Source of the DNA: Clostridia bacterium
GTDB taxonomy: Bacteria > Bacillota > Clostridia > Oscillospirales > CAG-382
Direction of reading: 5' to 3'
NCBI GenBank assembly: GCA_017549365.1
Contig: JAFYUZ010000087.1
Span: 4,112-68,111 of the forward strand
DNA length: 64,000 nucleotides
This document shows positions 5,764 through 42,476 of the stretch, piece after piece. Positions within the stretch are counted from its first letter, which is position 1. Every line of letters begins with the position of its first letter. A program made the translations under genes and the position numbers. The notes beneath the pieces were generated by a model that made no database searches, was not told where the DNA came from, and saw nothing but the letters and a program-made list of their open reading frames with translations.

Positions 5764-8700
5764 TTATTTGGAATCGGGGGTTTTGGTTTCCGCCATGGCG
5801 GCTTCGTCCTTATCAGTGATAAGAACGTTGCCGTCTTCGTCGATGATGCCCATCTCGATGAGCTCATCTTCGATCGGGAAATCATATTCCTTACGTTTTC
5901 TTTCGATTTCCTTATTAATTTCGTCGATGTAGTAAAGACCTGCGTCAGAAGCAGCGTCGCCGTCATCAACAACATCAAGGAATGCGAAGTTTGTATATCT
6001 GCCGACAATGTAGTTACCGGGAGTCATAGGAGTTCCCATGAGATTGTCGAACTGTTCCTGGAGATTAACCTTTTCCTGAGCGGACCAGGGCTGACCGAGA
6101 AGTGCCTTCTTGTTTGCGGTGAAGTACTTACCTGCCGAGCCGAGGATAGCAACCTGTTCCTTACCAAAACGTTCCTGTGCGGGAGCGTCTACCCACCACT
6201 TGATGTATTCCCAAGCTTCCTGATCGTTCTTTGCGTCACGCATGATCATGATGGAGGATGCACCGGAGGGAGAAACAGCGCTGAAGTTTGTGATAACGGG
6301 GTTGCCGTTTTCGTCTGTTACGATCTTGCCGTCTTCGTCAGTTTCGTATGTATACGAGCCGGGAAGTCTGATGAATTCCCAAAGACCCTTGATCTCGGGA
6401 GCAAAGCAGAGAAGCTGGTTACACAGCGAGTAGTCTGCAATACCCATAGGCATTTCGCCGGTTCTGAAACGGTTTGCGAAGTCGTAGGAGATCGGCTGGC
6501 CGTAAAGCGAGAAATATTCGCACATCTGCTGGAACGAGTCGAGCGCGATGTTGGAATCAAGGTTTGTTGCATATCCGATGGATTTGATGTTGCCTTCGCC
6601 CTTGTAGTAAGGCTCGCCCTTCTGGTACATAAGGATCTGAGTCATACCCTGAGAAAGACCGATGGTCATATTCTTATCGGAAAGCTTCTGGATGATGCCC
6701 TTGAGGTCATCCCATGTCTCGGGAACTTCAAGTCCGAGTTCAACGAAGATGTCCTTGCGGTAGAAGAGCATCGAGAAGGACTGGGTTACGGGGATACCGT
6801 AGGTTGCCTTCTGGTTCATGCCGGTGGTGTCGTCGGGGTTGTAAACTTCAAGACCTGTCCATGCCGATTCGGAGAACCAGCTGTCGCCGTTTACCTCGCC
6901 GTTTTCGTCAAGGCCGCGGACAATGTCAAATCCCTTGTATTTATATTCCCATTTACCGGTTTCTTCATTATATATCTTTTCTGCGATGTTCTTAACTGCG
7001 TTTCTTACACCGAAGCCTGTGGGGTCGGCGTCTGTCGAAACGTCAGGACCGATGCCTGCAAGAGTTGCGGGAAGAAGTGTACCTGCAGCAACGAGCTTGT
7101 AGTTTACGGCGATGCCTGTTGCATCTGTAAAGTCGTCAACCATCTCACGCATGATCTGCGCCTGGTCACGGCCTGTGGTAAGCCAAACTTCAACGTTGCC
7201 TGTGATTTCTGCGGCTTCTTTTTCTTCCTGAGGCATTTCACCGTAGGAGTTGTAGTCTGTGAAGAAGGACATGATGAACGAGCCGATTTCAAAGCCCATG
7301 GACTGGAAGAAGTTTGCTTCTGCCTTGGGGAGCTTTTCGTCTACGCCCTGGATCACGATGTAGTCTACGTTAAGAGGCTGGTTTCTCGACTGAAGCAGCC
7401 ATGTACCGATACTACCGACGTAGGACTTGAGGATCGAGAGGTTATCTGCGATCTTTGTTTCGTCCTTACCCATAACTTCGAGAGTATAGGCAACCTTGTC
7501 AAGGATAACCGAATGTTCGCCCTTTTCGCCGATGATCTCTTCGAACTGTGCAAGCACTGTTCTCAAGTTTTCGGCTTCTTCACGCATACCGCGCAAAACT
7601 TCGGGGATAAGCTTCTGGAAACCGTAGTCGGTGAACGAGCTGGGTTCGGGACCTGTAATCATAAGGATCTGTCTGTAATAGTCGTTCATCTTTGTAAGGC
7701 TTTCGTCAACCTTACGGAGCTTGTCGGAAAGGTTACCGAGAACGCACTCGAATTCGAGAACGTAGGTCTTGCCCTTTTCGAAATAGAAGCGGAAGTTTGT
7801 GGTTCCGTCGTTAAGAGGCTTTGTTTCCCAGTCGTCAGAGTAGTTGAACTGGAGGTACTTTGCTTCTTCAAAGGGATATTCGCCGTTGATCTTAAGAGAA
7901 CGGGAAGCAAAGATACCTGCGTATGTCGCCTGCTTTGCACGGGGGATAATGTAATAGTAGCCCGATTCCTGACATGTAAACTCGTAGCTGATCCACTGAC
8001 CGGCGATCTGCCATTTTTCACCGCCGATGTTGTTTACCAATGTCTTGCTGGTGGAGCTGGGCTCTGTGATGGAAGAAGTCTTGTCGCTTATGGGGTAGAT
8101 GACCTGATCGGATGTGGCAAGAGGCTGTTCTGCCTGGATCTTGATGGTGTGCTCGGAAGTAACGTTGCTGGTCTTGCCGTCTGTCAGTTCGTAATAGCCC
8201 TTTTCACCGTCTGTGCCATGATAGTGAACAAGCTTGTCTTCAACAAAAACTTCGATGCCGCCAAAGAGAACGGGCTCGCGGGAGCCGTAGATCTCAAGGC
8301 TGTTTTCGCCCTCTTCAAAGTAGAAGAGGAAGCTGTCTGTATAGAAAGCGTTGGAGTCGCGCAGAACGTGTTCGCGCCAAGAGGGATCCTCGTATTTCTT
8401 GGATCTGATCTCGTTTCCGTGTTTGTCCTGACGGAAAGGTCTTTCCATATCGACACCACCGAACTTGATGGTTTCGATCTTTTCGGGGATCTCGTCTTTC
8501 CATACACGGGTGAAAGCGATGTTACGCGCTTCTGTGAAAGGAACTTCGTTGTTGATCTTTATGATACGCTCAATGGCTACCGTGTTGCCCTCAACGTGGC
8601 CCGCAACTTCGTTTTCGCCGTACTTTGCATCATATGCATCTTCGCTGAGATTCTCAAGAAGAGTACCCGTTTCGGTATCGTAAACGATGTGTACGAAGGG

Positions 8701-9141
8701 GTAGTACGACAAAGAGATGTTGTAAAAGCCTGCTTCGGGGACGTTGACCTTGTAGATGGCCGAGTCGCCGTCGCCGGTGAGAACGTATTCGGAAACGCCG
8801 TAAGCGGGACCGTTTTTGTCTGTCTGAGCAATAATGCCCTTGGGGTCGCTGATCTTAACAGCGCCTTCTGATCTTTGTTCGTCAAAATCAACGGCATTGA
8901 TCTTGATGGGGGCGGGTCTGTCGCTCTGCGCGAAGGGAAGAACGCCTTCGGCCGCATACTGAGCCAGATAGTCTTCGTAGGTAGTGGCGTTCAAAAGCTC
9001 TGCCATTTCGTCAAGGGAGTTCGACGGGGTTGCGCCCCAGACGTCGTCCTTTGCGAAAGCCGTAGGCGAGAACTGCAACATCGTAGCCGCAAACAACGAC
9101 ATCGCAATAAGCTTTTTGAAACCTCTTGCTTTCATGTTCAT
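5764..9141 (-). CDS. giant extracellular solute-binding protein (about 1125 aa) with N-terminal carbohydrate-binding-like modules
   Basis: Signal peptide ...MLQFSPTAFA/KDD with no lipobox Cys. The N-terminal ~500 aa contain two related beta-sandwich-like segments (AIYKVNVPEAGFYNISLSYYP; WISYEFTCQESGYYYIIPRAKQ...KGKTYVLEFE). The C-terminal ~570 aa look like a family-1 sugar SBP. Start set to ATG 9141 (AGGAGG 9 nt upstream); the track start at 9147 is TTG. Confidence 0.8.
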   Translation of the reverse strand: MNMKARGFKKLIAMSLFAATMLQFSPTAFAKDDVWGATPSNSLDEMAELLNATTYEDYLAQYAAEGVLPFAQSDRPAPIKINAVDFDEQRSEGAVKISDPKGIIAQTDKNGPAYGVSEYVLTGDGDSAIYKVNVPEAGFYNISLSYYPFVHIVYDTETGTLLENLSEDAYDAKYGENEVAGHVEGNTVAIERIIKINNEVPFTEARNIAFTRVWKDEIPEKIETIKFGGVDMERPFRQDKHGNEIRSKKYEDPSWREHVLRDSNAFYTDSFLFYFEEGENSLEIYGSREPVLFGGIEVFVEDKLVHYHGTDGEKGYYELTDGKTSNVTSEHTIKIQAEQPLATSDQVIYPISDKTSSITEPSSTSKTLVNNIGGEKWQIAGQWISYEFTCQESGYYYIIPRAKQATYAGIFASRSLKINGEYPFEEAKYLQFNYSDDWETKPLNDGTTNFRFYFEKGKTYVLEFECVLGNLSDKLRKVDESLTKMNDYYRQILMITGPEPSSFTDYGFQKLIPEVLRGMREEAENLRTVLAQFEEIIGEKGEHSVILDKVAYTLEVMGKDETKIADNLSILKSYVGSIGTWLLQSRNQPLNVDYIVIQGVDEKLPKAEANFFQSMGFEIGSFIMSFFTDYNSYGEMPQEEKEAAEITGNVEVWLTTGRDQAQIMREMVDDFTDATGIAVNYKLVAAGTLLPATLAGIGPDVSTDADPTGFGVRNAVKNIAEKIYNEETGKWEYKYKGFDIVRGLDENGEVNGDSWFSESAWTGLEVYNPDDTTGMNQKATYGIPVTQSFSMLFYRKDIFVELGLEVPETWDDLKGIIQKLSDKNMTIGLSQGMTQILMYQKGEPYYKGEGNIKSIGYATNLDSNIALDSFQQMCEYFSLYGQPISYDFANRFRTGEMPMGIADYSLCNQLLCFAPEIKGLWEFIRLPGSYTYETDEDGKIVTDENGNPVITNFSAVSPSGASSIMIMRDAKNDQEAWEYIKWWVDAPAQERFGKEQVAILGSAGKYFTANKKALLGQPWSAQEKVNLQEQFDNLMGTPMTPGNYIVGRYTNFAFLDVVDDGDAASDAGLYYIDEINKEIERKRKEYDFPIEDELIEMGIIDEDGNVLITDKDEAAMAETKTPDSK

Positions 9142-24563: not shown

Positions 24564-26615
24564 TTATTCTTCTGCTGTTGCGTTTTCTGCAATGATCTTC
24601 TGTGCAAGCGGTCCCGGAACTTCTTCGTATCTTTCAAAAGCATATTCGAAGTCGCCTCTGCCCTGAGTCATGGCGCGCAGGGTGATGGAATAGGTGGTCA
24701 TTTCGGACTGGGGAACTTCTGCCTCGATGATGGTGAGGTCAGCATTGTCGCCCTTGCCTGTGCCGAGAATTCTGCCGCGGCGCTTGCTTACGTCGCCGAT
24801 AACGTCGCCCATGTAATCATCGGGAACAGAAACGGTAAGCTTGCCAACCGGTTCGAGGATGGCGGGATTTGCGTTTTTAAGCTCTTTGTATGCAAGACCT
24901 GCCGCAAGTTTGAACGCCATTTCGGACGAGTCAACGTCGTGGTACGAACCGTCAAAGAGGTCTGCACAAAGGCCAACCATCGGGAAGCCTGCCAAAACGC
25001 CCTTGAGCATACATTCGGAAAGTCCCTTTTCAACTGCGGGATGGAAGTTCTTGGGAACCGAGCCGCCAAAGGTGCTTTCGGAGAACACAAGTCCGTCTTC
25101 ACCGGGAGCAAAGTGGATCTTTACGTGGCCGTACTGACCCTTACCGCCCGACTGCTTCTTGTGCTTACCTTCTGCGTCGATCTTCTTCTTTATGGTTTCG
25201 CGGTATGCGATCTTGGGTTCGGAATACTGAACCGAAGTGCCAAAACGTGTCTTGAGCTTTGCGGTTACGATATCAAGGTGCTGTTCGCCAAGGCCGTAAA
25301 CGAGCATCTGCTTTGTTTCGGCATTGTTTTCATAGCGGAGGGTAAGGTCTTCTTCGAGAAGCTTGGAAATACCGCCCGAGATCTTGTCTTCGTCGCCCTT
25401 TGTGGCAGGAACGATACCCATGCCGTAGTAGGGAGTCTTGTACTTGATCTTCTTGTACTGTGTGGTCGAGCCAGAAGTGAGGGTGTCGTTGGTGTTGGTG
25501 TCCGAAAGCTTTGCGGTCATACCGATGTCGCCGCAGGCAAGCTCGTCAACTTCGGTCTGCTTCTTGCCCTTAAGGGTGTAGATATGCGAGAACTTTTCGT
25601 TGTCACCGGTGGTGAGGTTTTTGAGAACAGCGTCACGCTTGAGAGTGCCGTTCATAACCTTGAAGTAGGACATTTTTCCTACGAAGGGGTCGGCAACCGT
25701 CTTGAAAACAAAGATTGCGGGATCTCCTTCGGGATCGATCTTGACATATTCGTCGTCAAGGTCACGCTCGTGCTTCTTGCCGAAGGGATTCGGGAAGGAG
25801 TTGGAGATAACGTAAAGCAGGGATGTAATACCGTCAAGAGTTGCGGCAGAGCCTACCATAACGGGAGCGATGCTTCTGTCGTTGATACCCTTGCACAGAG
25901 CTTCTGTCATTTCGGCTTCGGTAAATTCTTCTTCTGCAAAGAACTTTTCCATAAGCTCGTCGGAGGTGGAAGCAAGAGATTCCATAAGAAGCGATCTTGC
26001 CTCGGCGATGTTGTCAGAGAACTTGGGATCGATGGCAATTTCCTTTGCCTCGGTGCCGTTGTATGCATACGCCTTGTTCTTGATGAGGTTTACGATACCG
26101 ACGGTCTTTCTGTTTTCAAAGATCGGGATGGTAACGGGGCAGATGGTCTTGCCGAATTTTTCACGCATGGCGTCGATTGTTGCCGAGAAGTTGGCGTTTT
26201 CGTCGTCGATCTTGTTGATAAAGAATGCCTTGGGCACGGTTGCCTCTGTGGCATATTCCCACGCGATCTCACAGCCTGCGTCCACACCGCTCTTGGCATC
26301 CATGACGATAAGAGCACAGCCCGAAACACGCAGACCCTGCATGACCTCGCCCGAAAAATCAAGATAACCGGGAGTGTCGATGATATTTATCTTTTTGTCG
26401 TTATAATAAGCGGGAGCGATAGCAGTGGAGATAGAAAATTTGCGCTTTATTTCCTCAGGGTCATAGTCACAGATGGTTGTTCCGTCTGCTGTCTTTCCAA
26501 GTCTGTCTGTCCCCTTCGAAATATACAGCATTGCTTCGGCAACCGAAGTTTTGCCGTTTCCTCCGTGTCCCAGCAAGCATATGTTGCGGATGTTTTCAGT
26601 TTTTGTAGTTGCCAT
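24564..26615 (-). CDS. EF-G-like translational GTPase paralogue with non-canonical G motifs
   Basis: 683 aa, collinear with EF-G domains I-V. G1 GHGGNGKTS, G3 DTPGYLDF (Tyr where the catalytic His normally sits), G4 NKID. Confidence 0.9.
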   Translation of the reverse strand: MATTKTENIRNICLLGHGGNGKTSVAEAMLYISKGTDRLGKTADGTTICDYDPEEIKRKFSISTAIAPAYYNDKKINIIDTPGYLDFSGEVMQGLRVSGCALIVMDAKSGVDAGCEIAWEYATEATVPKAFFINKIDDENANFSATIDAMREKFGKTICPVTIPIFENRKTVGIVNLIKNKAYAYNGTEAKEIAIDPKFSDNIAEARSLLMESLASTSDELMEKFFAEEEFTEAEMTEALCKGINDRSIAPVMVGSAATLDGITSLLYVISNSFPNPFGKKHERDLDDEYVKIDPEGDPAIFVFKTVADPFVGKMSYFKVMNGTLKRDAVLKNLTTGDNEKFSHIYTLKGKKQTEVDELACGDIGMTAKLSDTNTNDTLTSGSTTQYKKIKYKTPYYGMGIVPATKGDEDKISGGISKLLEEDLTLRYENNAETKQMLVYGLGEQHLDIVTAKLKTRFGTSVQYSEPKIAYRETIKKKIDAEGKHKKQSGGKGQYGHVKIHFAPGEDGLVFSESTFGGSVPKNFHPAVEKGLSECMLKGVLAGFPMVGLCADLFDGSYHDVDSSEMAFKLAAGLAYKELKNANPAILEPVGKLTVSVPDDYMGDVIGDVSKRRGRILGTGKGDNADLTIIEAEVPQSEMTTYSITLRAMTQGRGDFEYAFERYEEVPGPLAQKIIAENATAEE

Positions 26616-28418: not shown

Positions 28419-30097
28419 TATACCGCATTTCCGATTTTGAAAATTCCCACAAAAGCCTTGTTGCGGCAATAAATTTTGCCGTGCAGGCGTTGGACGAGGG
28501 CGACACCCTTGAGCTTGAGGACAAGGTGTACGACATTTTCCCCGACGGTGCTTTTAAAAAATACTATTGCATCTCAAACAACGACAAGGGCGAAAAACAG
28601 ATTGCCTTTCCCGTTATCGGCAAAAAGAACGTGACGATCGACGGACGCGGGTCAAAGCTTGTTTTCCACGGCGATATTCTGCCCTTTGTCATAGACGAAA
28701 GCGAAAACGTAAAGGTAAAGAACTTTTCAATAGACTATTCCTCGCCAAAGTACGCGCAGGGAAAGGTGATAGAAGCAAGCCTTAAAAGAACCGTGCTTGA
28801 ATATGACGGCGACGAGTTCAATTGCCGCGTGGTGGACGGAAACCTTTCGTTTTTCAGCAAGACCGACGGCTGGGAAAACACAGTCGAGCAATGCCTGACA
28901 CTGGAGTTTGACGCCGACAAAAAAGCCCCCGATCCTTTTGCTCCCACCTATTTTATCTACACGGGCAAGCCCAAGGACCACGGTTTTCTCGGCAGAATGT
29001 TCAAGGATATAAAGGCGCGCGAGCTTTCGGAAAACGTTATTGAGCTGTGCGGCAATTTCACCCGTGAGCACAAGGTGGGCAATTATCTGATAAGCACCCA
29101 CTGCGGACGCCATTATCCCGGCATTTTCGTTGCCGATTCAAAGGACGTTGACCTTTACGGCATTGATCTTTTGCACACCTACGCCATGGGCGTTATCTGC
29201 CAGACCAGCGAAAACATCTCTCTTGAAAAAATAGTTGCGCAGGCAAAGAAGGATACGCCCAGAATGCTTTGCGTAAACGCCGATGCCACCCATTTTGTCA
29301 ACTGCCGCGGAAAAATATCCTTTAAAAACTGCAAGTTTGTCAATATGATGGACGATGCCTGCAATATCCACGGAATATATCTGAAAGATCCCAAAAAAGT
29401 GGACGAAAACGCCTTTGTGGCAGGCTTTGGACATTTTCAGCAGGTGGGCATCAATATCTTCCGCAAGGGCGACGAGGTGCTTATCACAAATCCCAAAAAT
29501 ATGAAAGAAAAGCAAGTTTATACGGTTGAAAGATCGGTTCTTCTTTCGGAAAACGAGATAAAAGTTTTTGTAAAAGAGCCGCTTTGTGACATTCCCGCAG
29601 GATACGTTGCCGAAAACCTTTCGTCCGCCCCCGATATTCACGTATGCTCCTGCGAGACGGGCAACAACCGTCCGCGAGGTTTCCTGCTTGCCACCCGCGG
29701 AAAAACGCTGGTGGAGGACAGCACCTTTTACAATATGTACGCAGGCGTTGTGGCAGGTTGCGAAATGCGCAACTGGTACGAAAGCGGACCTGCCGCCGAC
29801 ATCACTGTGCGCAACTGTAATTTCAAAAACAGTGCGTATGCAGGCGGTTTTGCCATGACCGTCGTGCCAAATCTCTACTCTCCCGAAAACGCAGGCAGTA
29901 TCAACGGCAGAGTGCTTGTTGAAAACAACAGATTTGAACTGCACGAAAAACGATTCCTGTGCGTTCGCAACACCGCCGAAGTCACCTTCAGAAACAACGA
30001 ATATATCTGCAACACCTCGCTTCCCTCACACCCTGTCGGAAACCCCGACGGCATCGATGTTTTGTGGTGCGAAAAGACAGATATTGAAAAAATATAA
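28415..30097 (+). CDS. right-handed parallel beta-helix protein (possibly glycosidase-like), no signal peptide
   Basis: 560 aa, ATGA overlap with the upstream gene. Repetitive coils (CNIHGIY, VCSCETGNNRPRGFL, VRNCNFKNSAY, VENNRFE). Any resemblance to GH110-type enzymes is only an impression. Confidence 0.65.
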   Translation: MIYRISDFENSHKSLVAAINFAVQALDEGDTLELEDKVYDIFPDGAFKKYYCISNNDKGEKQIAFPVIGKKNVTIDGRGSKLVFHGDILPFVIDESENVKVKNFSIDYSSPKYAQGKVIEASLKRTVLEYDGDEFNCRVVDGNLSFFSKTDGWENTVEQCLTLEFDADKKAPDPFAPTYFIYTGKPKDHGFLGRMFKDIKARELSENVIELCGNFTREHKVGNYLISTHCGRHYPGIFVADSKDVDLYGIDLLHTYAMGVICQTSENISLEKIVAQAKKDTPRMLCVNADATHFVNCRGKISFKNCKFVNMMDDACNIHGIYLKDPKKVDENAFVAGFGHFQQVGINIFRKGDEVLITNPKNMKEKQVYTVERSVLLSENEIKVFVKEPLCDIPAGYVAENLSSAPDIHVCSCETGNNRPRGFLLATRGKTLVEDSTFYNMYAGVVAGCEMRNWYESGPAADITVRNCNFKNSAYAGGFAMTVVPNLYSPENAGSINGRVLVENNRFELHEKRFLCVRNTAEVTFRNNEYICNTSLPSHPVGNPDGIDVLWCEKTDIEKI

Positions 30098-30144
30098 CAA
30101 AAAACCATTGCAATGCCATGTAAGCTTTGCAATGGTTTTGCTTT

Positions 30145-30285
30145 TTATTCAATAATCTCCCGTATGGCACTTTCGGCGTCCTTTACCTCCTTGTGAAAGG
30201 CGGCGGCAGGCACGCGCAGAGCACCCGAGCCGAGTATTATCATCTGCTCGGCGGCATCGGAGGTGGCAACCCTTACGCGGTGTTA
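30145..30285 (-). other. in-frame TAA (30283-30285) plus 45 further in-frame codons encoding the missing C-terminal part of the NYN/Rae1 domain
   Basis: Same frame as the 30283-32715 CDS: ...VSHELSK * HRVRVATSDAAEQMIILGSGALRVPAAAFHKEVKDAESAIREIIE * (second stop at 30145-30147). The VATSD...EQ...G.GALR string matches the conserved YacP/Rae1 C-terminal half as I recall it. Confidence 0.8.
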
Positions 30286-32715
30286 TTTTGAAAGCTCGTG
30301 GGATACCTTTTGAATGTACGAATCGGCAGTCTCTGCCTCTTTGGTATAAACAACGCTGATATTGCGGAAATTTTCGATGCTTCCGGGGTTTTTCTTCACT
30401 CTGTACGCATCAAAAACAAGGATTATTTTGGTGCCGCAAAAACCCTGGTAGTTGCACAGACGATGTATCAGGGTGGTGCGGGCAAGATCAAGGCTTTGGG
30501 ATGCCTGCTTTTTCAGCTCGTCCCAGGCAAAAATGATGTTGTAGCCGTCAACAAGAAGATATTCTTCGCCGTCAAAGATCTGCGGCTTTGCCTTGGGCGC
30601 TTTTGGCTTTTCGACAATGCTTTTTGGCGCTTCGTGCCGCACTTTTCCGCCGTCCCTTTTGCGTATCGGGCCGTAGGTCCGCTCGAATATCGCCATAAGC
30701 TCGGTGTCGCTTGCAACGCTTGCAAGATAGTTTTCGGCACGGCGCTTTATTTCAAGCTGTTGCTCGATCGCCTCGTTGTCGCGGTTCAGCACGCTTTCTA
30801 TGTGCATATAGTTTTCGACCTCGTCCCATTTGACAAGAAAACCTGCCCCGTGGGCGCAAAAAACCGAATCACAGGAGTTTTCAAGGTCGGCGTCTGCATC
30901 ATAGCCTATTTCTTCAATCACCTTTTGCGCGTCGGCACATTCCTCATATCCGCGAAGGGTGCAGATTATTCTGCCCTTTCCGTGCGAAAAATCCGCAAGC
31001 TCAAGGCCGTAATGCTGGATCTTTGAAACGGGCGCGTGCCCTGTGACGGTGGTCATTTCGCCGTCCGATTCGGGGGGATTCATGACAGCACCAAAGCGCT
31101 GCATATCAGTCATGACTCTGCCCGTCATGCTGTCGGGCACGGTTATTTCGTAGTTGTAATAAGGCTCGAGAAGCACGCTTTTTGCGCGGCGCAGTCCGTG
31201 ACGCACGGCACGATAGGTCGCCTCGCGGAAATCTCCCCCTTCGGTATGCTTTTTGTGGGCTCTGCCTGCCACAAGGGTTATTTTCATATCGGTTATGGGA
31301 GCGCCCGTCAAAACACCCACGTGGGTCTTTTCTTCAAGGTGGGTGAGGATCAATCTTTGCCACGAGCGCAAAAGCTCGTCGGTGGAGCAATCTGTGCAGA
31401 ACGAAAGCCCCGTTCCGCGCTCGGCAGGCTCAAGTATCAGATGCACCTCGGCATAGTGGCGCAAGGGCTCGTAATGTCCCACGCCCTCCACCGTGTCGGC
31501 AATCGTTTCGCGATATACCACCCGTCCCGCATCAAACGAAACGTCCATCAAAAGACGGGTGCTTATGAGATTTTTTATTATTTCAAGCTGTATCTGACCC
31601 ATCAACAGAAGCTTTATTTCCGAAAGGCGTCTGTCAAAGGTTATGCGAAGGGTGGGTTCTTCCTCCTCCAAAAGCTTAAGCTTTGAATACGCCGTCACGG
31701 GGTCTGCCTTTTCGGGCAGGATAACGCGATAGTTGAAAACAGGCTCAAGCACCGGCACGGGAAGCTCTTTTTCAAAGCCGAGGGTGTCACCTGCCGCGGC
31801 CATTGAAAGACCGGTTACGGCACATACCGTGCCTGCGGGCACTTCTGTTACCGATTCAAACTTTGCACCCGAATATATTCTGATACCGTCGATCTTTTCG
31901 TTCCATTCCTCGCCTGCCGCTGTTTTTCCCGAAAGGCTGTCGCGCACACAAAGTGCGCCGCCCGTAACCTTGAGATGCACAAGACGCTTGCCGTTTTCGT
32001 CGCGGGATATCTTGTATATTCTTGCGCCAAAGCTGTCGGGATATTGGGGCTGTTTCATGTATTCGCAGATGCCCGAAAGAAGTCGGTCTGCCCCCTGATT
32101 TTTCAGCGCCGAACCGAAATAGCAGGGAAAAAGCTTTGCCGACGATACGGCGGACGAAATATCCTCCTGCGAAAGAGAACCCGTTTCAAGATATTTTTCC
32201 ATCAAAGCTTCGTCGCACATAGAAACGTCGTCGAAAGAAGAAAGTCGGTCTTCTTCGATGCAGGAGGACGAAAGCCTCTTTGTGATGCCGCGCATCAGGG
32301 TTTCGCGGTCGGCAGACGGCACGTCCATTTTGTTCACGAAGATAAAGGTGGGTATAGAGTGCTTGCGTAAAAGCCGCCACAAGGTCTCGGTGTGGCTTTG
32401 CACCCCGTCAATGCCGCTGATGACAAGGATCGCCGCATCAAGCACGCAAAGGGTGCGCTCGGTTTCAGAGGAAAAATCCACGTGTCCCGGGGTGTCGAGC
32501 AGGGTGAACTCAAAATCGTTGCCGTAAAGAATTGCCTGCTTTGAAAAAATGGTGATGCCGCGGTCACGCTCGAGCTCGTGGGTGTCAAGAAAAGTGTCGG
32601 CGTGGTCAACTCTGCCGAATTTTCTTATGTTCCCCGTGGTGTAAAGAAGTGCTTCGGAAAGTGTGGTCTTTCCCGAGTCTACGTGGGCAAGTATTCCCAC
32701 CGTCAGCTTTTTCAC
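30283..32715 (-). CDS. TetM/EF-G-like translational GTPase fused to an N-terminal portion of a Rae1/YacP NYN ribonuclease domain (ends at a premature-looking TAA)
   Basis: G1 AHVDSGKTT, switch I RGITI, G3 DTPGHVDF, G4 NKMD. About 640 aa are collinear with ribosomal-protection-type factors. A basic linker follows, then residues 717-810 (nt 30286-30567): EEYLLVDGYNIIFAW...KIILVFDAYR...VVYTKEAETADSYI (NYN_YacP-like). GTG start with AGGAGG 6 nt upstream. Confidence 0.85.
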   Translation of the reverse strand: MKKLTVGILAHVDSGKTTLSEALLYTTGNIRKFGRVDHADTFLDTHELERDRGITIFSKQAILYGNDFEFTLLDTPGHVDFSSETERTLCVLDAAILVISGIDGVQSHTETLWRLLRKHSIPTFIFVNKMDVPSADRETLMRGITKRLSSSCIEEDRLSSFDDVSMCDEALMEKYLETGSLSQEDISSAVSSAKLFPCYFGSALKNQGADRLLSGICEYMKQPQYPDSFGARIYKISRDENGKRLVHLKVTGGALCVRDSLSGKTAAGEEWNEKIDGIRIYSGAKFESVTEVPAGTVCAVTGLSMAAAGDTLGFEKELPVPVLEPVFNYRVILPEKADPVTAYSKLKLLEEEEPTLRITFDRRLSEIKLLLMGQIQLEIIKNLISTRLLMDVSFDAGRVVYRETIADTVEGVGHYEPLRHYAEVHLILEPAERGTGLSFCTDCSTDELLRSWQRLILTHLEEKTHVGVLTGAPITDMKITLVAGRAHKKHTEGGDFREATYRAVRHGLRRAKSVLLEPYYNYEITVPDSMTGRVMTDMQRFGAVMNPPESDGEMTTVTGHAPVSKIQHYGLELADFSHGKGRIICTLRGYEECADAQKVIEEIGYDADADLENSCDSVFCAHGAGFLVKWDEVENYMHIESVLNRDNEAIEQQLEIKRRAENYLASVASDTELMAIFERTYGPIRKRDGGKVRHEAPKSIVEKPKAPKAKPQIFDGEEYLLVDGYNIIFAWDELKKQASQSLDLARTTLIHRLCNYQGFCGTKIILVFDAYRVKKNPGSIENFRNISVVYTKEAETADSYIQKVSHELSK

Positions 32716-32800
32716 GTTTTTCCTCCTTTCTTTGCGTTAAATTTTACATGATGAAAAAAAGATGCTTTCACAACGCAAGATCAAAGCTTTTGCTTTTTTG

Positions 32801-36840: not shown

Positions 36841-36915
36841 GCTGGTGTGGCGCAGGGGTAGCGCAACTGATTCGTAATCAGTAGGCCGAGAGTTCAAATC
36901 TCTCCACCAGCTCCA
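36841..36915 (+). tRNA. tRNA-Thr (anticodon CGU), CCA encoded
   Basis: Manual cloverleaf: acceptor GCTGGTG/CACCAGC, D stem GCGC/GCGC, anticodon stem ACTGA/TCAGT with loop TTCGTAA, T arm GAGAG-TTCAAAT-CTCTC, discriminator T, then CCA. Confidence 0.93.
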
Positions 36916-36960: not shown

Positions 36961-37136
36961 AATGATGTTTGCCTACGGCAAATGATGTTGGGCTTCGCCA
37001 ATGATGACGGCTACGCCTAATGATGTGTGCCTGACGGCACATTGAGGCAAACATCGCATCATTGCGGAACGAAGTGGAGCAACATCATTTTGAGCGAAGT
37101 GAAAAACATCATATCGCCACAAGGCGATGCATCATT
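36961..37136. repeat. array of eight AATGATG heptamers (4 direct, then 4 inverted)
   Basis: AATGATG at 36961, 36981, 37000 and 37019 (spacing 20, 19, 19 nt). The complement CATCAT(T/A) at 37057, 37083, 37107 and 37130 (spacing 26, 24, 23 nt). Short GC hairpins sit between units (TTTGCC-TAC-GGCAAA, GTGCC-TGAC-GGCAC, ATCGCC-ACAA-GGCGAT). Confidence 0.85.
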
Positions 37137-37228
37137 TGAAGATATACAAGGCTTGCGCCTTGATTTTAGTTAGACTTTGTGGTATAATCTGATCGATAAA
37201 TAAGAATTTGATGAAGGAGTGTGATTTT

Positions 37229-37387
37229 ATGAAAAAGGTTCTTCAAGTAATTTGCTGTGCAGTAGGTAGTGGAATGATTGGTTTCTTTGCTAATCAGTTG
37301 GATACGGTTGTTGGTAGTGTGTGTTTCACACTTGGCATCGTTCTGCTTGTTGCTTCAATCAGTATAATGAGCAAAAAGGACAATTGA
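37229..37387 (+). CDS. small (52 aa) two-TM membrane protein
   Basis: Below the track length cut-off. GAAGGAG RBS 9 nt upstream of the ATG. MKKVLQVICCAVGSGMIGFFANQLDTVVGSVCFTLGIVLLVASISIMSKKDN. Promoter TTGATT-17-TGGTATAAT lies upstream (about 37160-37188). Confidence 0.55.
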   Translation: MKKVLQVICCAVGSGMIGFFANQLDTVVGSVCFTLGIVLLVASISIMSKKDN

Positions 37388-37394
37388 CCAATTC

Positions 37395-37486
37395 CAATTT
37401 GTCGAGTAGTTAATAGAGCAAAATCACACACCTTTTTACTGTTCTTTCGCAACAAAAAATGCACAGCTTCTGCTGTGCGTTTTTTG
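37395..37486 (+). repeat. 92-bp repeat module copy A (conserved 65-nt core plus intrinsic terminator)
   Basis: CAATTTGTCGAGTAGTTAATAGAGCAAAATCACACACCTTTTTACTGTTCTTTCGCAACAAAAAA, then hairpin GCACAGC-TTCT-GCTGTGC and a T-run. See copy B. Confidence 0.85.
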
Positions 37487-37560
37487 TTATATGCGGAGAT
37501 TTGAACTCCAAGGGGGCTTTTAGGTGCAAAACTCTGCCAATAAAACTTTGCAAAAAGTTA

Positions 37561-37609
37561 TTGACAAGTTCACTTGGCAATGTTATAATAATGACAAGAA
37601 AACTTGTCA
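37561..37609 (+). promoter_or_regulatory. consensus promoter overlapped by two palindromic operators
   Basis: TTGACA (37561-37566), 17 nt spacer, TGtTATAAT (TATAAT at 37584-37589). Palindrome 1 TTGACAAGT-TC-ACTTGGCAA (37561-37580) covers the -35. Palindrome 2 TGACAAG-AAAA-CTTGTCA (37592-37609) sits between the -10 and the RBS. Confidence 0.7.
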
Positions 37610-37622
37610 AAGGAGATTTGTT

Positions 37623-37952
37623 ATGAACAAAGATGAAGTTTTGAAGATAAGCCAGCAGGAAAACAAAGGAAAACTTGATGAGCGAGAGTTAGCAGTATTT
37701 GGTAAAGCATCGCGAGTCGGTATGCTTGTCGGTGGATTGCTTTGTGTTGCTTTAATCCTTGTTAGCGAATTTGTTTTGAATATGCCAGAACTCGCATTGG
37801 TTGGGTGGATGGTGTATTTTGCTATGCAAGGTAGTAGCAATATTGTTTTATTTAAGTATTTGAAAACTCCCTCTAAGCTAATCTATGGCATTATCGAAAT
37901 TGCTTTTGCTGTTGCATTCGCTGTTGCGATTGTATTTAAGGCGGTGGCATAA
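37623..37952 (+). CDS. small membrane protein (DUF6442-like) partnered with an XRE regulator
   Basis: MNKDEVLKISQQENKGKLDERELAV... followed by 3 TM segments. AGGAG RBS 7 nt upstream. The family name is from memory. Confidence 0.7.
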   Translation: MNKDEVLKISQQENKGKLDERELAVFGKASRVGMLVGGLLCVALILVSEFVLNMPELALVGWMVYFAMQGSSNIVLFKYLKTPSKLIYGIIEIAFAVAFAVAIVFKAVA

Positions 37953-37954
37953 AT

Positions 37955-38161
37955 ATGGATGATAAATTGATATTAAAAAACAGTCTGAAAGATGCTCGCA
38001 GTGAAAAAGGATTATCTCAACAACAATTAGCAGAAATGGTAGGCGTTTCGCGAAACACAATCAGTTCAATTGAAACTGGACAGTTTAATCCGACCGCAAA
38101 GCTTGCATTAGTTTTGTGCATAGCATTGGATAAAAAATTTGAAGATTTATTTTTCTTTTAA
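37955..38161 (+). CDS. XRE-family helix-turn-helix transcriptional regulator (68 aa)
   Basis: LKDARSEKGLSQQQLAEMVGVSRNTISSIETGQFNPTAKLALVLCIAL. It starts 2 nt after the upstream gene. Confidence 0.88.
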   Translation: MDDKLILKNSLKDARSEKGLSQQQLAEMVGVSRNTISSIETGQFNPTAKLALVLCIALDKKFEDLFFF

Positions 38162-38169
38162 TTAAATTT

Positions 38170-38262
38170 CAATTTGTCGAGTGGTTAATAGAGCAAAATC
38201 ACACACCTTTTTACTGTTCTTTCGCAACAAAAAAGCGCAGCTTTATGCTGCGCTTTTTTTGT
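38170..38262 (+). repeat. 92-bp repeat module copy B
   Basis: The 65-nt core is identical to copy A except for one base (TGGT vs TAGT). It is followed by a different but equivalent terminator hairpin, AGCGCAGC-TTTAT-GCTGCGCT, and a T-run. Confidence 0.85.
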
Positions 38263-38290
38263 TTAAGTGTTTAAGCCCAAAAACTTTGCC

Positions 38291-38863
38291 TCAATATTTT
38301 TTGCGTCCTTTTTTCAAAAGGTTTAATCCAAGCAAAAAAACCGCAAGGGTAACGGCGGTGCCTGTTGCGACGTTCATAATGCATATTTCCGTTTCTGTCA
38401 TTCCTTCAAAAGAAACAAGCATGGAGCGTTGCAGGGCAAATACCGAAACCACGGCATCCGCAAAAGATATGCTTCTTAAAGCCGTCAATTTTGCCGAGCC
38501 GTTTTTTCTTGTCTTTATCCAATTTACGGTTGCAATAGTGATCTTGGTAAAAGTGTACGCGGCAATTGCGATCATAACTATGATATGAAACACAACACCC
38601 CTGTCTTTTACTGTTGCGAGTATCACCGTCCCGACAAGAGGCAACGTCAGCAACATAAGCATTGTTCCCGCAAAGCGAAGTATGAAACGTTTTTCCCCTT
38701 TGTGTTTCAGCGCCACAAATCGAACGGCGCTTAATATCACGTAATAAACCCCTATGGTGAAAAACCAAAACGACTCGGTTATTATACCCGAAACCACGTG
38801 ATACAAACCATACGCGAGATTGAACAAAAAACTTCCAAGGGCAAACTTTTGCGTTCTATTCAT
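38291..38863 (-). CDS. hypothetical integral membrane protein (about 6 TM)
   Basis: ORF 38291-38887. ATG 38863 is preferred because the GTG at 38887 abuts its putative RBS. It overlaps the TetR gene stop by 8 nt, which suggests one operon. Confidence 0.6.
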   Translation of the reverse strand: MNRTQKFALGSFLFNLAYGLYHVVSGIITESFWFFTIGVYYVILSAVRFVALKHKGEKRFILRFAGTMLMLLTLPLVGTVILATVKDRGVVFHIIVMIAIAAYTFTKITIATVNWIKTRKNGSAKLTALRSISFADAVVSVFALQRSMLVSFEGMTETEICIMNVATGTAVTLAVFLLGLNLLKKGRKKY

Positions 38864-39440
38864 TCGGTCTCTCTTTTCCGTAAACACACACCTTGATTAT
38901 TTCGGCCAATTCCTCACAAGTTTTGTCACATCCGTTTTTCAGCCATTCAAAAACTATTGCGCTTATTCCGTTAAGATAATACATCATTACATACTGTCTG
39001 TCTTTTGGCGGATAATCAAATCTTTCCAGAACAGGATCAAATATATTATCAAACATTTTCTTGTACACCGCTTCAAAACCAAAGGTTTTGTTATTCAGCA
39101 CCGCAGTTTTAAAAATTTCCTTGCGGTCTCTGATATACGTGAGATACGGCACGAGATATTCGTTGCAAATAAAAAACAGATCTTTATTTTTGCATTCGGA
39201 TAAATCAACCAATCTTATTGAAAAATACGATAAAAAATCATCCAGCAAATATCTTACCGTTTCGTTCAAAAGATCGCCAATCGTTTCATAATGCAAATAA
39301 AAGGTAGAGCGGTTTACGCCGGCAGTCTCACATATTTCTCTTACGCTGACATATTCAAACGACTTTTTTTGCAACAAGGAGATCAACGCGGTATCCATTT
39401 TAACAGCAGTATTAAAATATTTGCTTTCGGATCTGTTCAT
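38856..39440 (-). CDS. TetR/AcrR family transcriptional regulator
   Basis: N-terminal HTH FEYVSVREICETAGVNRSTFYLHYETIGDLL. AAGGAG RBS 7 nt upstream. Confidence 0.9.
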   Translation of the reverse strand: MNRSESKYFNTAVKMDTALISLLQKKSFEYVSVREICETAGVNRSTFYLHYETIGDLLNETVRYLLDDFLSYFSIRLVDLSECKNKDLFFICNEYLVPYLTYIRDRKEIFKTAVLNNKTFGFEAVYKKMFDNIFDPVLERFDYPPKDRQYVMMYYLNGISAIVFEWLKNGCDKTCEELAEIIKVCVYGKERPNE

Positions 39441-39460
39441 ATCACCGCTCCTTGTGCTTT

Positions 39461-39814
39461 TTATTTTTCGTCTGCTATCTCGCTGGCAAGCTGTACGATC
39501 TCATAGCCGTATTTTGCCTTGCCCTTTTCAAGCATTTTTTTGTAGATAGGATAATTCACGGCACAACCGATCATGCCGATAATACCAATAATGATTCCCA
39601 GCACCATGCCGAGCATACCACTGCCGATAACACGCATTGCCAAGCACATTCCGGTGCCAAACACAAGCGCTGATACAATGCCGAATGTGTAAGTGAAAAT
39701 TGTTGCAGGAAGCTTTGCACGGCTGTCAAGTTTTTTCAAGGCAACGATCTTTGAGTTACCCTTGGGCGCATAGTCCTTTGCAATCGATTCTGCTAAAATT
39801 TTGTCTGTGTTCAT
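39461..39814 (-). CDS. small membrane protein (2 TM)
   Basis: 117 aa. A hydrophilic N-terminus, then FTYTFGIVSALVFGTGMCLAM and MVLGIIIGIIGMIGCAV. It lies upstream of the TetR gene on the same strand. Confidence 0.6.
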   Translation of the reverse strand: MNTDKILAESIAKDYAPKGNSKIVALKKLDSRAKLPATIFTYTFGIVSALVFGTGMCLAMRVIGSGMLGMVLGIIIGIIGMIGCAVNYPIYKKMLEKGKAKYGYEIVQLASEIADEK

Positions 39815-39968
39815 AATAAATGAAACCTCCTTTTTGTTTTACAATGCTATTTTATCAGCATCGGGAGGAAAAATGAACAACACGTTTTTGTGAAAATGTT
39901 GATTTCAATTTTTTATTTCAAATACGGTCAAAGCACAAGAGCAGAGGAAAAACCTCCGCTCTCATTTT

Positions 39969-40769
39969 CTAGTTTTGAAAGTTCCATTTCTTTAATATCT
40001 GATGCTCTATGAATTTTGCAACGCCATCTGCATCGTTGCTTTCTATGACATAATCGGCAACAGATATGACCTCGTCTATTCCGTTGGAAACAGCAATTCC
40101 CAGCCCACACATTTTCATCGGTTCAATATCGTCCTGGTCGTCTCCGAAATAGGCAGTTTCATCAGAAGAACAGTTGCAGATATTAAGCATTGCCTTTATG
40201 CCATTCCATTTTGTTGCTGATGTGCTCATGATTTGCAATAGATAACCGTGTGCGATAGTATAATACAAATCTTCAGTCAATTCTTTTTGAACTATCGACA
40301 GATCTTCCTCTCTGTCAAGGTGAACAAGTATTTTTAGTACCCCTTCTTTGTCAGCAATACCAATTAAATCGTCGGTAATAACTGTATCATAATCCTCGAT
40401 CGGAAGATTTGAATATGCACAATCTCCTGTTTCGAGAGTAATTCGCAGATTCGGGTAGTGTTTCAACGCATTTATCAAACGCTCGGCACTTTTTAGGTAT
40501 ATCCCACAATCTGTTCGTCGGTTTCCGCAAATCACTCTTGCACCATTGGAAACGACTATTGCATCAAAATCTATCAATTCACAATATTGCTTTGTTGCAC
40601 GGAAAGGTCTTGCTGTGGCAACCATGATTTTGATTCCACATTTCTTACAACATTTAAGAACTTTAACGGTATATGCAGACATTGTTTTATCTGTGTGCAG
40701 CAAAGTTCTGTCCAGATCTACGATGACAGTTTTAACGTTTGCAGTACTCAGCATTTGCATCACATCCAT
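39969..40769 (-). CDS. Cof-type HAD-IIB family hydrolase
   Basis: Motif I VIVDLDRTLL and motif IV YFGDDQDDIEPM. Start uncertain (ATG at 40769, ATG at 40754 or TTG at 40781). Confidence 0.85.
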   Translation of the reverse strand: MDVMQMLSTANVKTVIVDLDRTLLHTDKTMSAYTVKVLKCCKKCGIKIMVATARPFRATKQYCELIDFDAIVVSNGARVICGNRRTDCGIYLKSAERLINALKHYPNLRITLETGDCAYSNLPIEDYDTVITDDLIGIADKEGVLKILVHLDREEDLSIVQKELTEDLYYTIAHGYLLQIMSTSATKWNGIKAMLNICNCSSDETAYFGDDQDDIEPMKMCGLGIAVSNGIDEVISVADYVIESNDADGVAKFIEHQILKKWNFQN

Positions 40770-40796
40770 TTCACAAATCAACCTTTATGTGTTTTC

Positions 40797-41279
40797 TCAT
40801 TCACGATATATAAAATGCTGTGCTCCATCATTATCTATACGATCCATAAGCTCAACAACATTAGTGGGATAGATTTCTATATTCTTCAATTCTGTCAGGG
40901 GAACCCAATGAAACTCCATATTGAAATTCCCACCCTCTATTTGTTCTTTTCCTGTGAAAACACCTTCCCACGGGATATTATCGGAGGTTATTTCCACAAT
41001 ATAATACAAACAAATCTGATGACATTGTTTGTTGCCCCATGGAAAAAACACTTCTCCTACCCATTTCAAGTCGCCCACCGAAATTTTCACACCGATTTCT
41101 TCAAAAAACTCTCTTGAAAGAGTCTGTTCATTCGTTTCACCAAAGGTCACCTGACCACCCGGAAAAGCAAAGGCTGTGTCATTGATGGGTTTTTGCAACA
41201 GAACTTTGCCTTTATGTATGCATATCCCCGCAACTCTGTATGAAAACACATATTCATCTGTGTGGAATAAAATATCCAT
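40797..41279 (-). CDS. NUDIX hydrolase
   Basis: Nudix box FPGGQVTFGETNEQTLSREFFEEIGV. GAGGGGA RBS. Confidence 0.88.
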   Translation of the reverse strand: MDILFHTDEYVFSYRVAGICIHKGKVLLQKPINDTAFAFPGGQVTFGETNEQTLSREFFEEIGVKISVGDLKWVGEVFFPWGNKQCHQICLYYIVEITSDNIPWEGVFTGKEQIEGGNFNMEFHWVPLTELKNIEIYPTNVVELMDRIDNDGAQHFIYRE

Positions 41280-41329
41280 GCTGTTCCCCTCACTGTCTGC
41301 CTTATGTTTTCCATCGCGCTAATCTTGAT

Positions 41330-41902
41330 TTATATCCGGGTTATGTTAAAAACTCGCATATATTCATCAATCGCCGCAAGATCCCTTGCCTGCAGAAATC
41401 TTTTTTGATTCGTTTCATGGCAGATATCTTTAATCAAATGAATCATTTCGCCGAGCGAACACCATTTCAGTGTTGTGCCAAGCTCGGCTTCTTCTTTTGT
41501 CAAGTGTGGAACTGTATACTTTGTTTTTGTATGTATCACAAAAAAATACGACAAAGTTGTAATGTCGGCATGGTATCTGTTTTCGGAAACAACCCCCAAA
41601 CGTTTTATATCATCACATATACAGCCTGTTTCCTCATACACTTCTCTTGTTATTGCCGCCGTTTCATCTTCCCTGTCTTCAATTCCGCCACCCGGCAAAG
41701 AGTAAATGTCGGTTTTTTCTTCGTACATTACCGCATATTTTCCGTCTTCATTTATCAAAATAGCTCTTGCTTTTTTCCTTGGCTCCTTATTGCTCAATCC
41801 ATCGGTGCCAAGTACATTCTTGTCGGTAAGTTCTGCAATAATTTTCCAATCAATAACCATGCTATCCTCTTTCTCTTTGCTTGTGCCGGATCTATAGCTC
41901 AC
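41330..41902 (-). CDS. NUDIX hydrolase
   Basis: Nudix box LPGGGIEDREDETAAITREVYEETGC. The GTG at 41902 overlaps the upstream stop (GTGA). An alternative ATG at 41860 has an AAGAGGA RBS. Confidence 0.85.
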   Translation of the reverse strand: MSYRSGTSKEKEDSMVIDWKIIAELTDKNVLGTDGLSNKEPRKKARAILINEDGKYAVMYEEKTDIYSLPGGGIEDREDETAAITREVYEETGCICDDIKRLGVVSENRYHADITTLSYFFVIHTKTKYTVPHLTKEEAELGTTLKWCSLGEMIHLIKDICHETNQKRFLQARDLAAIDEYMRVFNITRI

Positions 41903-42393
41903 GCACTCTCTTGCTGTGCAAGCATTTTGTCAAGCGCTCTGACAAAATCCTTGTATCCCTTTGGAAAATTTTCCGAGCCATCTGCCTTAATGGTTTTATC
42001 GCCGTTCACACAGGCAGAAAAACGGAACATTTCCCCATCATGCACGTTCTTTGGATGTTTGCCGTGAAATCCGTCCCAGCGGATAACTCCGCAGTTATTT
42101 ACAAGCTCAACAAATTCCGCCGTGTCAACAACCGCACTTGCCTCGGGTACAAGACTTGTTTTATTGTCGGCATACACTTCGCGATAACGCAAAATTTTTG
42201 TTTTTTCACCATCGACTTCGATCTTATATTCGGTGCCGCCGCGCATTACGAGGCGGACAAGCGACATCGACTCGATCGACGAAACCGTCTTTTTTTGTCC
42301 TGCCGTGCAACCAAACAATCCAAAAAGCGAAACGAATACTACCACAGACAGGAACAGTGGAATTTTTTTGCGTATTGTCATATGTTTTTTCAT
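41899..42393 (-). CDS. hypothetical lipoprotein
   Basis: Lipobox LFGLFGCTAG. Start set to ATG 42393 (GAGGTG 5 nt upstream). Confidence 0.65.
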   Translation of the reverse strand: MKKHMTIRKKIPLFLSVVVFVSLFGLFGCTAGQKKTVSSIESMSLVRLVMRGGTEYKIEVDGEKTKILRYREVYADNKTSLVPEASAVVDTAEFVELVNNCGVIRWDGFHGKHPKNVHDGEMFRFSACVNGDKTIKADGSENFPKGYKDFVRALDKMLAQQESA

Positions 42394-42476
42394 TTTGGCA
42401 CCTCGCAAATATTTATTTTGGTCTGTCCGAAATTTTCCGTGTGATATTCAGCAAAATTTGCGCTTTGCACAAGCTA

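Follow-up and report, generated by a model that had tools for sequence, protein, structure and literature searches.

A gene on the minus strand of the stretch analyzed here (the window: 64,000 nucleotides of contig JAFYUZ010000087.1, assembly GCA_017549365.1 of a Clostridia bacterium) encodes a translational GTPase of the EF-G/TetM type which, together with a folded extension, is joined by a basic disordered tether of 31 to 41 residues to a Rae1/YacP-type NYN nuclease domain within a single reading frame. The covalent fusion of the two modules is confirmed as genuine, and the gene is a chromosomal, stand-alone member of the clostridial TetM-like GTPase/NYN_YacP fusion family. In the overall picture that we favor, with a probability of roughly 55%, the intact protein would dock in a GTP-dependent manner at the factor site of the ribosome and bring the nuclease to mRNA on stalled or collided ribosomes. 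The fusion is not a new discovery. An earlier, sequence-only reading of the window pointed it out; the family has been known since 2015/2017, when TetM-like/NYN_YacP fusions in Clostridia were described by Atkinson 2015 in BMC Genomics (PMC4342817) and by Matelska et al. 2017 in Nucleic Acids Research (PMC5499597), and near-identical proteins are present in public databases. Both studies report the architecture only, with no function (PMC4342817, PMC5499597); the former places the fusion proteins in the Tet subfamily and proposes testing their ability to act as ribosomal RNA (rRNA) RNases (PMC4342817). The result specific to the window is modest: a known, uncharacterized family member with a point nonsense change.

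A GTPase and a Rae1-type nuclease in one reading frame

The proposal, made from the sequence alone, that a GTPase and a nuclease are fused in one gene was borne out by Pfam, by sequence matches to the Protein Data Bank (PDB), by Foldseek structure comparison, and by 82 related loci. Pfam searches with the 810-residue product as encoded and with the read-through product matched GTP_EFTU, EFG_IV, EFG_C, and NYN_YacP, far beyond chance. The motifs quoted in the sequence-only reading (AHVDSGKTT, RGITI, DTPGHVDF, NKMD, EKPKAPKAKPQ, LLVDGYN, VFDAY, and ETAD) all lie where that reading had placed them, the 94 residues that it assigned to the end of the product correspond exactly to amino acids (aa) 717-810, and the count of 45 in-frame codons beyond is likewise exact; VATSD..EQ..GSGALR is also present, downstream of an in-frame stop. 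The gene and its modules are arranged as follows, with AF2 denoting the AlphaFold model of an intact relative and pLDDT its predicted local distance difference test score (mean, 77.9).

30145..32715, minus strand: full frame including the extension past the first TAA (45 further sense codons, then TAA; 856 codons)
30283..32715, minus strand: open reading frame (ORF) as encoded, 810 aa, with a GTG start at 32715 and a TAA stop at 30283..30285
32041..32715, minus strand: G domain, aa 1-225 (Pfam GTP_EFTU, aa 4-221, E 6.6e-50)
31531..32040, minus strand: domains II and III, aa 226-395 (Pfam EF-G_D2, 2.2e-5, and EFG_III, 2e-5; collinearity with TetM/TetO and EF-G)
31180..31530, minus strand: domain IV, aa 396-512 (Pfam EFG_IV, E 3.6e-20), with the family-specific tip loops GHYEPLRHYAEV and AGRAHKKHTEGGDFR
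30928..31179, minus strand: domain V, aa 513-596 (Pfam EFG_C, E 3.3e-16, reaching aa 595)
30664..30927, minus strand: family-specific folded extension, aa 597-684 (conserved in 30 homologs; AF2 secondary structure)
30568..30663, minus strand: disordered basic tether, aa 685-716 (Lys/Arg/Pro-rich, EKPKAPKAKPQ; pLDDT <50 for aa 685-711)
30148..30567, minus strand: Rae1/YacP-type NYN domain, aa 717-856 of the intact frame (Pfam NYN_YacP, PDB 5mq8, Foldseek 5mq9), split by the stop

The set of 82 related loci consists of 80 species-level genomes from a genome collection and two close relatives, L001 and L002. In these loci, the fusion ORF spans ~840-920 aa and is uninterrupted wherever the contig allows; isolate genomes with a contiguous fusion ORF include those of Ruminococcus flavefaciens ND2009 and Intestinimonas butyriciproducens An565. 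The window aligns with L002 across 11.9 kb at 98.3% identity with 7 gaps only and thus shows no sign of poor assembly. Given the same contiguous ORF in 82 independently assembled loci, isolates among them, and the collinearity with L002, a chimeric GTPase/NYN junction, the possibility on which the sequence-only reading had made its proposal depend, is ruled out, and the chance that the junction or the entire fusion is an assembly artifact is negligible, with no support found for it and the in-frame stop codon as the sole irregularity.

The nuclease domain is of the Rae1/YacP type, as the sequence-only reading had held. In the ORF as encoded, NYN_YacP (PF05991) was matched over aa 720-810 with 108.6 bits (E 4.3e-31; profile positions 1-92 of 166). 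Over 30148-30567, the stretch which that reading had regarded as decisive, bridging the stop raised the match to 162.9 bits (E 8.5e-48; profile positions 1-136 of 166), so that both frames score above the gathering score of 24.6 bits. The sequence match to Bacillus subtilis Rae1 (PDB 5mq8) has an E value of 1.4e-24 (aa 719-852 against residues 3-136), and the domain is ~40-44% identical to Rae1. The structure prediction and Foldseek search that the sequence-only reading had proposed as a check returned the Rae1 crystal structure: in the AF2 model, the NYN fold matched 5mq9_B with an E value of 2.6e-11, a target-normalized TM score of 0.71, and a root-mean-square deviation of 2.1 Å over 136 columns at 41% identity, the next match (~1e-2) being nine orders of magnitude weaker. 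The hallmarks of NYN_YacP proteins are a GYN directly after the first conserved Asp and at least four active-site Asp residues (Matelska 2017, PMC5499597). In an alignment of 30 full-length homologs (56-88% identical to the reference), D723, G724, Y725, and N726 of the LLVDGYN motif (aa 720-726) are invariant, as are the four aspartates D723, D769 (FDA), D798 (ETAD), and D820 (TSD), all of which are present in the extended frame of the window.

The fusion NYN domain shares the D-GYN motif, the four aspartates, and the fold with B. subtilis Rae1 (PDB 5MQ8/5MQ9), with the following differences. Rae1 is a free protein of ~170 aa, whereas in the fusion a tether connects the NYN domain with a GTPase body of 684 aa. 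Profile positions ~137-166 of stand-alone Rae1 are predicted to form two C-terminal basic helices (Matelska 2017, PMC5499597), whereas the fusion domain ends at profile position ~136-137 of 166, also in the homolog from L085, and thus lacks this tail. Finally, the gltX-cysS-mrnC-yacO operon in which Rae1 is usually encoded is absent around the window gene.

The body of the protein has the full set of features of the translational GTPase superfamily. The G1 (AHVDSGKTT), switch I (RGITI, with its Thr), G3 (DTPGH, with the catalytic His78), and G4 (NKMD) motifs are invariant across the 30 homologs, and domains II-V follow; the EF-G_D2 and EFG_III matches are both slightly below the Pfam gathering scores, and domains II-III are confident in the AF2 model. 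The best Foldseek matches for the body are EF-G structures on and off the ribosome (E 1e-53). Conservation is highest in domain IV, with 43% invariant columns, compared with 32% in the NYN domain, 24% in the G domain, and 0% in the linker; together with the invariant GTPase motifs, these figures speak for selection on both modules. The sequence-only reading had drawn the GTPase homology to about aa 640; the EF-G/TetM-type body is indeed present, but its homology ends around aa 595 according to Pfam, and a folded extension lies beyond. This extension (aa 597-684) combines a beta-hairpin motif, NxxDSVFCxHGAGFxVKWDEV, with two helices behind it that include ELMxIFERTYG; it yielded no Pfam, PDB-sequence, or Foldseek match, and modeled without the GTPase body it has low confidence. 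Across the homologs, the tether that follows has no invariant column, a length of 31-41 aa, and 6-12 Lys and Arg residues. Retention of length and basic composition without invariant columns is the pattern that a flexible tether between constrained modules would show; fully extended, 31-41 residues would span about 110-140 Å by our estimate.

A recent premature stop in the window copy

The elements that bear on the ends of the gene are the following.

32722..32727, minus strand: Shine-Dalgarno sequence AGGAGG, 6 nt 5' of the GTG start (direct sequence reading)
30283..30285, minus strand: premature TAA at codon 811 (a single A-to-T change in a run of seven A; AAA, Lys, in relatives)
30145..30147, minus strand: native stop TAA of the 856-codon frame, the position at which the 856-aa homologs end
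30087..30142, minus strand: intrinsic-terminator-like hairpin and U-run directly 3' of the native stop (RNA fold)

The window copy is the sole interrupted one among the window and the 82 related loci. Codon-by-codon comparison with L001 and L002 traced the interruption to the context of the A7 run, which reads TCAAAAAAACAC in the relatives and TCAAAATAACAC in the window; codon 811 is AAA in both L001 and L002, and six proteins from the database search (P0001-P0006; 97-99% identical and exactly 856 aa long) all have Lys at position 811. At the DNA level, the gene is 98.4% identical to that of L002 (40 differences, 30 of them synonymous) and 92.2% identical to that of L001 (201 differences, 169 synonymous), a preponderance of silent changes that speaks for evolution under constraint. 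The 135 nt past the premature stop are identical to those of L002 and differ from those of L001 at 13 positions, of which 12 are synonymous, indicating that this segment was coding until very recently. The codon-811 TAA may have arisen by a very recent nonsense mutation or may reflect an error in the base call; a real mutation is judged more likely because of general error rates. Programmed read-through or recoding at the TAA was considered and rejected: every relative has a sense Lys codon at this position, the A7 run is disrupted by the substitution, and nothing resembling a recoding signal was seen.

The premature stop deletes the TSD aspartate D820 together with the last 45 residues, so that three of the four catalytic aspartates are left in the 810-aa ORF. 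Thus, the window product as encoded does not contain a complete nuclease: its frame is broken by a stop absent from the relatives, and its NYN domain is incomplete. The transcription unit looks arranged for the 856-codon frame, as suggested by the strong hairpin and U-run right behind the second TAA (-22.4 kcal/mol; z-score, -4.9; none of 200 shuffled sequences folded as stably). No RNA leader or attenuator of the kind preceding tet(M) was found near the gene, an Rfam search over the entire window yielding only a tRNA, and the sequence of the 85-nt upstream spacer contains nothing notable.

The fusion family in gut and rumen Clostridia

The survey of Clostridia that had been proposed together with the fusion recovered the same architecture in at least 80 species-level genomes, including Oscillospiraceae, Ruminococcus, Faecalibacterium, Intestinimonas, Monoglobus, Lachnospiraceae, Acutalibacteraceae, and Ruminiclostridium; the best 80 of at least 600 stretches were used, and all of these span the fusion-specific extension. 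A protein search returned at least 120 clusters (843-895 aa) with one and the same Pfam set throughout, and the full-length family members are 56-99% identical to the window protein. Family size was gauged with aa 597-810 as the query, that is, the extension and the first two thirds of the NYN domain. This query matched 2270 representative clusters (50% identity) with a cut-off of E≤1e-3, of which 225 were left when the cut-off was set to E≤1e-30; among the matches listed, most are fusions of 830-1000 aa or fragments thereof. The window protein has the domain order, taxonomic group, and Pfam set of the other clostridial fusions, namely a Tet-clade translational GTPase and NYN_YacP in one polypeptide from Clostridia, and departs from them only in the point nonsense change at codon 811.

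Two members stand apart. A full-length fusion on a 6.7-kb contig (L066, CAVEPP010000094.1) is binned as Alloprevotella sp. (Bacteroidota), while the other best-80 matches are from Clostridia, and the Alloprevotella label is probably a binning error. In an 844-aa protein from an ENA metagenome (P0088), the N-terminal 700 residues are ~57-59% identical to the window protein and the NYN domain is almost identical to it, a mosaic that suggests either recombination between lineages or a metagenome assembly chimera.

Proposed action on stalled or collided ribosomes

Cleavage by Rae1 depends on translation and falls 12 nt upstream of the A-site codon at which the ribosome is stalled (PMC12407103); the enzyme cuts at the tail of a ribosome that has stalled or collided (PMC12407103, PMC13622287). 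Cleavage in the A site itself, which the sequence-only reading had taken as established, was superseded as a premise in 2025. A 2026 preprint reports Rae1-dependent tagging by transfer-messenger RNA (tmRNA) on collided ribosomes (PMC13622287). The delivery of a nuclease to the ribosome under GTP control, also put forward in that reading, stands as a reasonable inference from homology: the GTPase motifs and the acidic residues of the nuclease are invariant in the 30 members, as would be expected of a ribosome-docked nuclease.

According to the picture favored here, the GTP-bound body would, by homology with EF-G and TetM, occupy the factor-binding site of the ribosome and extend domain IV to the decoding center. 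The extreme conservation of the unique domain IV tip suggests that it recognizes one particular state of the ribosome. Ribosome-bound RNA would come within reach of the NYN domain through the tether, the most probable substrate being mRNA on stalled or collided ribosomes, because B. subtilis Rae1 acts there; action on ribosome-bound RNA is a likeness to Rae1 that we presume for the fusion. A factor bound to the trailing ribosome might hold the nuclease near the mRNA entry side of that ribosome. This side faces the stalled ribosome at its tail, the place of cleavage by Rae1. The truncated message resulting from cleavage would be a substrate for tmRNA rescue, and GTP hydrolysis would release the factor. 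The GTPase body may stand in for whatever ribosome-targeting element stand-alone Rae1 uses, and the lack of the C-terminal tail of Rae1 in the fusion fits this possibility. If this picture holds, a functional analogy, with no homology claimed, can be drawn with SmrB of Escherichia coli and Cue2 of yeast, nucleases that are recruited to stalled or collided ribosomes, cut the mRNA, and feed a rescue pathway (PMC12407103, PMC13622287); these have the unrelated SMR fold and no GTPase module, whereas the fusion combines an NYN fold with a GTPase.

More tentatively, the intact protein could be a self-contained, GTP-gated "no-go decay" factor, in which the domain IV tip senses the stalled or collided ribosome and licenses the tethered Rae1 domain for cleavage that leads to tmRNA rescue, taking over from or complementing free Rae1. 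If so, a nuclease fixed at a defined place on the ribosome would make the binding site of Rae1 tractable by cryo-electron microscopy, and the window strain would carry a natural nuclease-truncated allele. Work from 2025-2026 has made Rae1 a central nuclease for the rescue of stalled and collided ribosomes in Gram-positive bacteria. A natural Rae1-GTPase fusion that is widely distributed among the dominant Clostridia of gut and rumen, such as Ruminococcus, Faecalibacterium, and Oscillospiraceae, offers a handle on how Rae1 finds the ribosome and is positioned on it.

Several points weigh against ribosome docking and mRNA cleavage as the role of the fusion. Ribosome binding, the GTPase and nuclease activities, and the substrate are all predictions from homology, and full-text literature searches found no experiment on any family member, in agreement with the sequence-only reading, which knew of no characterized example. 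No structure locates Rae1 on the ribosome, which bears on whether the tether can reach the cleavage site, and domain IV differs from those of both EF-G and TetM, which bears on the ribosomal state that it recognizes. As to a stand-alone rae1 beside the fusion, the 64-kb window contains no second NYN gene, the related genomes being represented by flanks only. Finally, the window copy is itself interrupted.

The substrate need not be mRNA. Cleavage of rRNA or tRNA (16S or 23S rRNA, or the A-site tRNA), by which ribosomes would be matured, decommissioned, or shut off under stress, is an unlikely reading. In its favor, NYN_YacP proteins were first proposed to process rRNA or tRNA on the basis of their operon with mrnC and yacO (PMC5499597), the factor site is ringed by rRNA, and a tether of 31-41 aa is short enough to favor nearby targets. 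Against it stand the 40-44% identity of the NYN domain to Rae1 and the fold common to both, and no sequence feature points to rRNA specifically.

A Tet-clade GTPase that appears distinct from TetM and EF-G

Many database records annotate members of the family as tetracycline ribosomal protection proteins, some homologs being named "TetM/TetW/TetO/TetS family" in RefSeq, and the fusion could accordingly be read as a protein of the TetM/TetO type with an accessory nuclease. The likeness to Tet(M)/Tet(O) is considerable. The two share a five-domain translational GTPase body without the large G' insertion of EF-G and are collinear in a single stretch over aa 1-591; both have a C-terminal extension after domain V, that of the fusion being much longer and followed by the nuclease; tet_protect is the best-scoring NCBIfam model; and Atkinson 2015 placed the fusion proteins in the Tet subfamily (PMC4342817). 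Nevertheless, the tet_protect score is 423.2 bits against a cut-off of 775, whereas Tet(O) from pTet, included as a positive control, passes with 850.6 bits. The functionally most important element of Tet(M) is loop III of domain IV, L505-Y-Y-S508-P-V-S, which displaces tetracycline (PMC4750697). By direct alignment, loop III is GRAHKKHTEGGDFR in the fusion, GLYYSPVSTPADFR in Tet(O), and GSYHDVDSSEMAFK in EF-G; the aligned segments of the fusion and TetO are GRAHKKHTEGG and GLYYSPVSTPA, respectively, with AHKKHTEGG in place of YYSPVS and the YSPVS motif absent from the fusion. Loop I of domain IV (GHYEPLRHYAEV) is likewise family-specific. Identity to TetO is only 29%, and the gene is chromosomal, off mobile elements, and vertically widespread in gut Clostridia. 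Tetracycline protection is therefore an improbable function, and the labeling of many fusion genes as tetracycline-resistance determinants, despite their failure in the defining tests, can inflate resistome counts.

The fusion falls short of EF-G as well, scoring 296-341 bits with EF-G models that have cut-offs of 583-659 (TIGR00484, 296 vs. 659), and direct alignment shows that it has neither the loop I motif (QSGGxGQY) nor the loop III motif (SYHDVDS) of EF-G. By these sequence criteria, the GTPase module is neither TetM nor EF-G but a Tet-clade translational GTPase of its own kind.

The closest unfused relative found belongs to the Lactobacillales, a 644-aa Tet-like GTPase of Ligilactobacillus salivarius (WP_172824497.1), which is 44-46% identical to the fusion over aa 1-647. 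The two agree in the pattern at the tip of domain IV (HT-GGDFR, GHFEPLRHY) and in the hairpin motif DSVFCAHGAG; the first half of the extension is thus shared. The unfused protein ends after this motif, without the helices, tether, or NYN domain; like the fusion, it is uncharacterized and scores below the tet_protect cut-off (375 bits). Considering the shared domain IV pattern and hairpin, the nuclease seems to have been added to a pre-existing Tet-like GTPase lineage. The gene for the unfused homolog, annotated as TetM/W/O/S family, lies on an L. salivarius megaplasmid (NZ_LT604075.1; L084, 3531..5920) as a divergent neighbor of rpsN (ribosomal protein S14) and of a gene for a "putative metal homeostasis protein".

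Genomic setting

The neighbors of the fusion gene in the window include beta-helix and GLAA-B-type glycosidase-like genes, ThiF, NUDIX, a second EF-G paralog, and a 439-aa protein with a sub-threshold match to Melibiase_C only. The housekeeping genes WhiA and MurB are found further along, and the setting is therefore an ordinary chromosome. To compare neighborhoods, ORFs were called in the 82 related loci and clustered by all-against-all BLASTP. Conserved neighbors, which the sequence-only reading had suggested surveying, were not detected in this set: the top families, a TrmO tRNA methyltransferase and a MATE-like transporter, occur in 8 of the 82 loci, and a rubrerythrin neighbor in 5; the fusion gene has no partner in an operon. 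Where present, TrmO is encoded one or two genes downstream on the same strand in six of the eight loci (for instance, L057, 10320..11021; Pfam TrmO_N, 2.4e-43).

These observations bear on the abortive anti-phage action that the sequence-only reading had entertained. A nuclease targeted to ribosomes could in principle arrest translation upon infection by cleaving RNA, in the manner of a toxin, and in L001 the fusion gene adjoins a small HTH_3 (helix-turn-helix) gene, helix-turn-helix neighbors having been mentioned by Matelska 2017 (PMC5499597). However, a search of PADLOC-DB 2.0 returned no match for the fusion protein or three of its neighbors, no neighbor family recurs in more than 8 of the 82 loci, no immunity or antitoxin partner is conserved, and the gene is flanked by genes of housekeeping or carbohydrate function. 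Among "phage" records, the gene occurs only in faecal scaffolds marked UNVERIFIED, of which the one inspected is full of housekeeping genes. A role in defense is thus unsupported and highly improbable.

The two records in question, L085 (MT835563.1) and MT835514.1, are entitled "UNVERIFIED: Bacteriophage sp.", originate from human faeces, and match the fusion-specific C-terminal query in full. MT835563, the one inspected, carries an entire 875-aa fusion amid genes for NAD(P)H-hydrate dehydratase, Sir2, and diaminopimelate (DAP) epimerase; it looks like a bacterial contig, and phage carriage was rejected on this ground. Plasmid carriage was likewise rejected, the two full-length "plasmid" matches being 252-518 kb replicons of Agathobacter and Monoglobus.

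Some local features deserve mention in their own right. Right behind the fusion gene, L001 has an insertion of ~0.9 kb (8133..9041) that is absent from the window and from L002 and encodes the HTH_3 protein (67 aa) as well as an ORF of 180 aa that matches DUF4282 weakly; it recalls the neighbors noted by Matelska 2017 (PMC5499597). In the window, a tRNA-Thr(CGT) gene (36841..36915, plus strand) is followed by a low-GC stretch (37000..42400; GC fraction 0.39-0.42 vs. ~0.48 elsewhere) that encodes DUF6442, a TetR regulator, a HAD hydrolase, and two NUDIX proteins, with no integrase or phage genes seen in it. The second EF-G paralog (24564..26615, minus strand; 683 aa) is not part of a str operon and is separated from the fusion gene by 3.5 kb. 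Its score exceeds the cut-off of the NCBIfam "elongation factor G" subfamily model NF009381 (838 vs. 583 bits) and falls below that of the EF-G equivalog TIGR00484 (577 vs. 659 bits), and it occupies the same relative position in L001.

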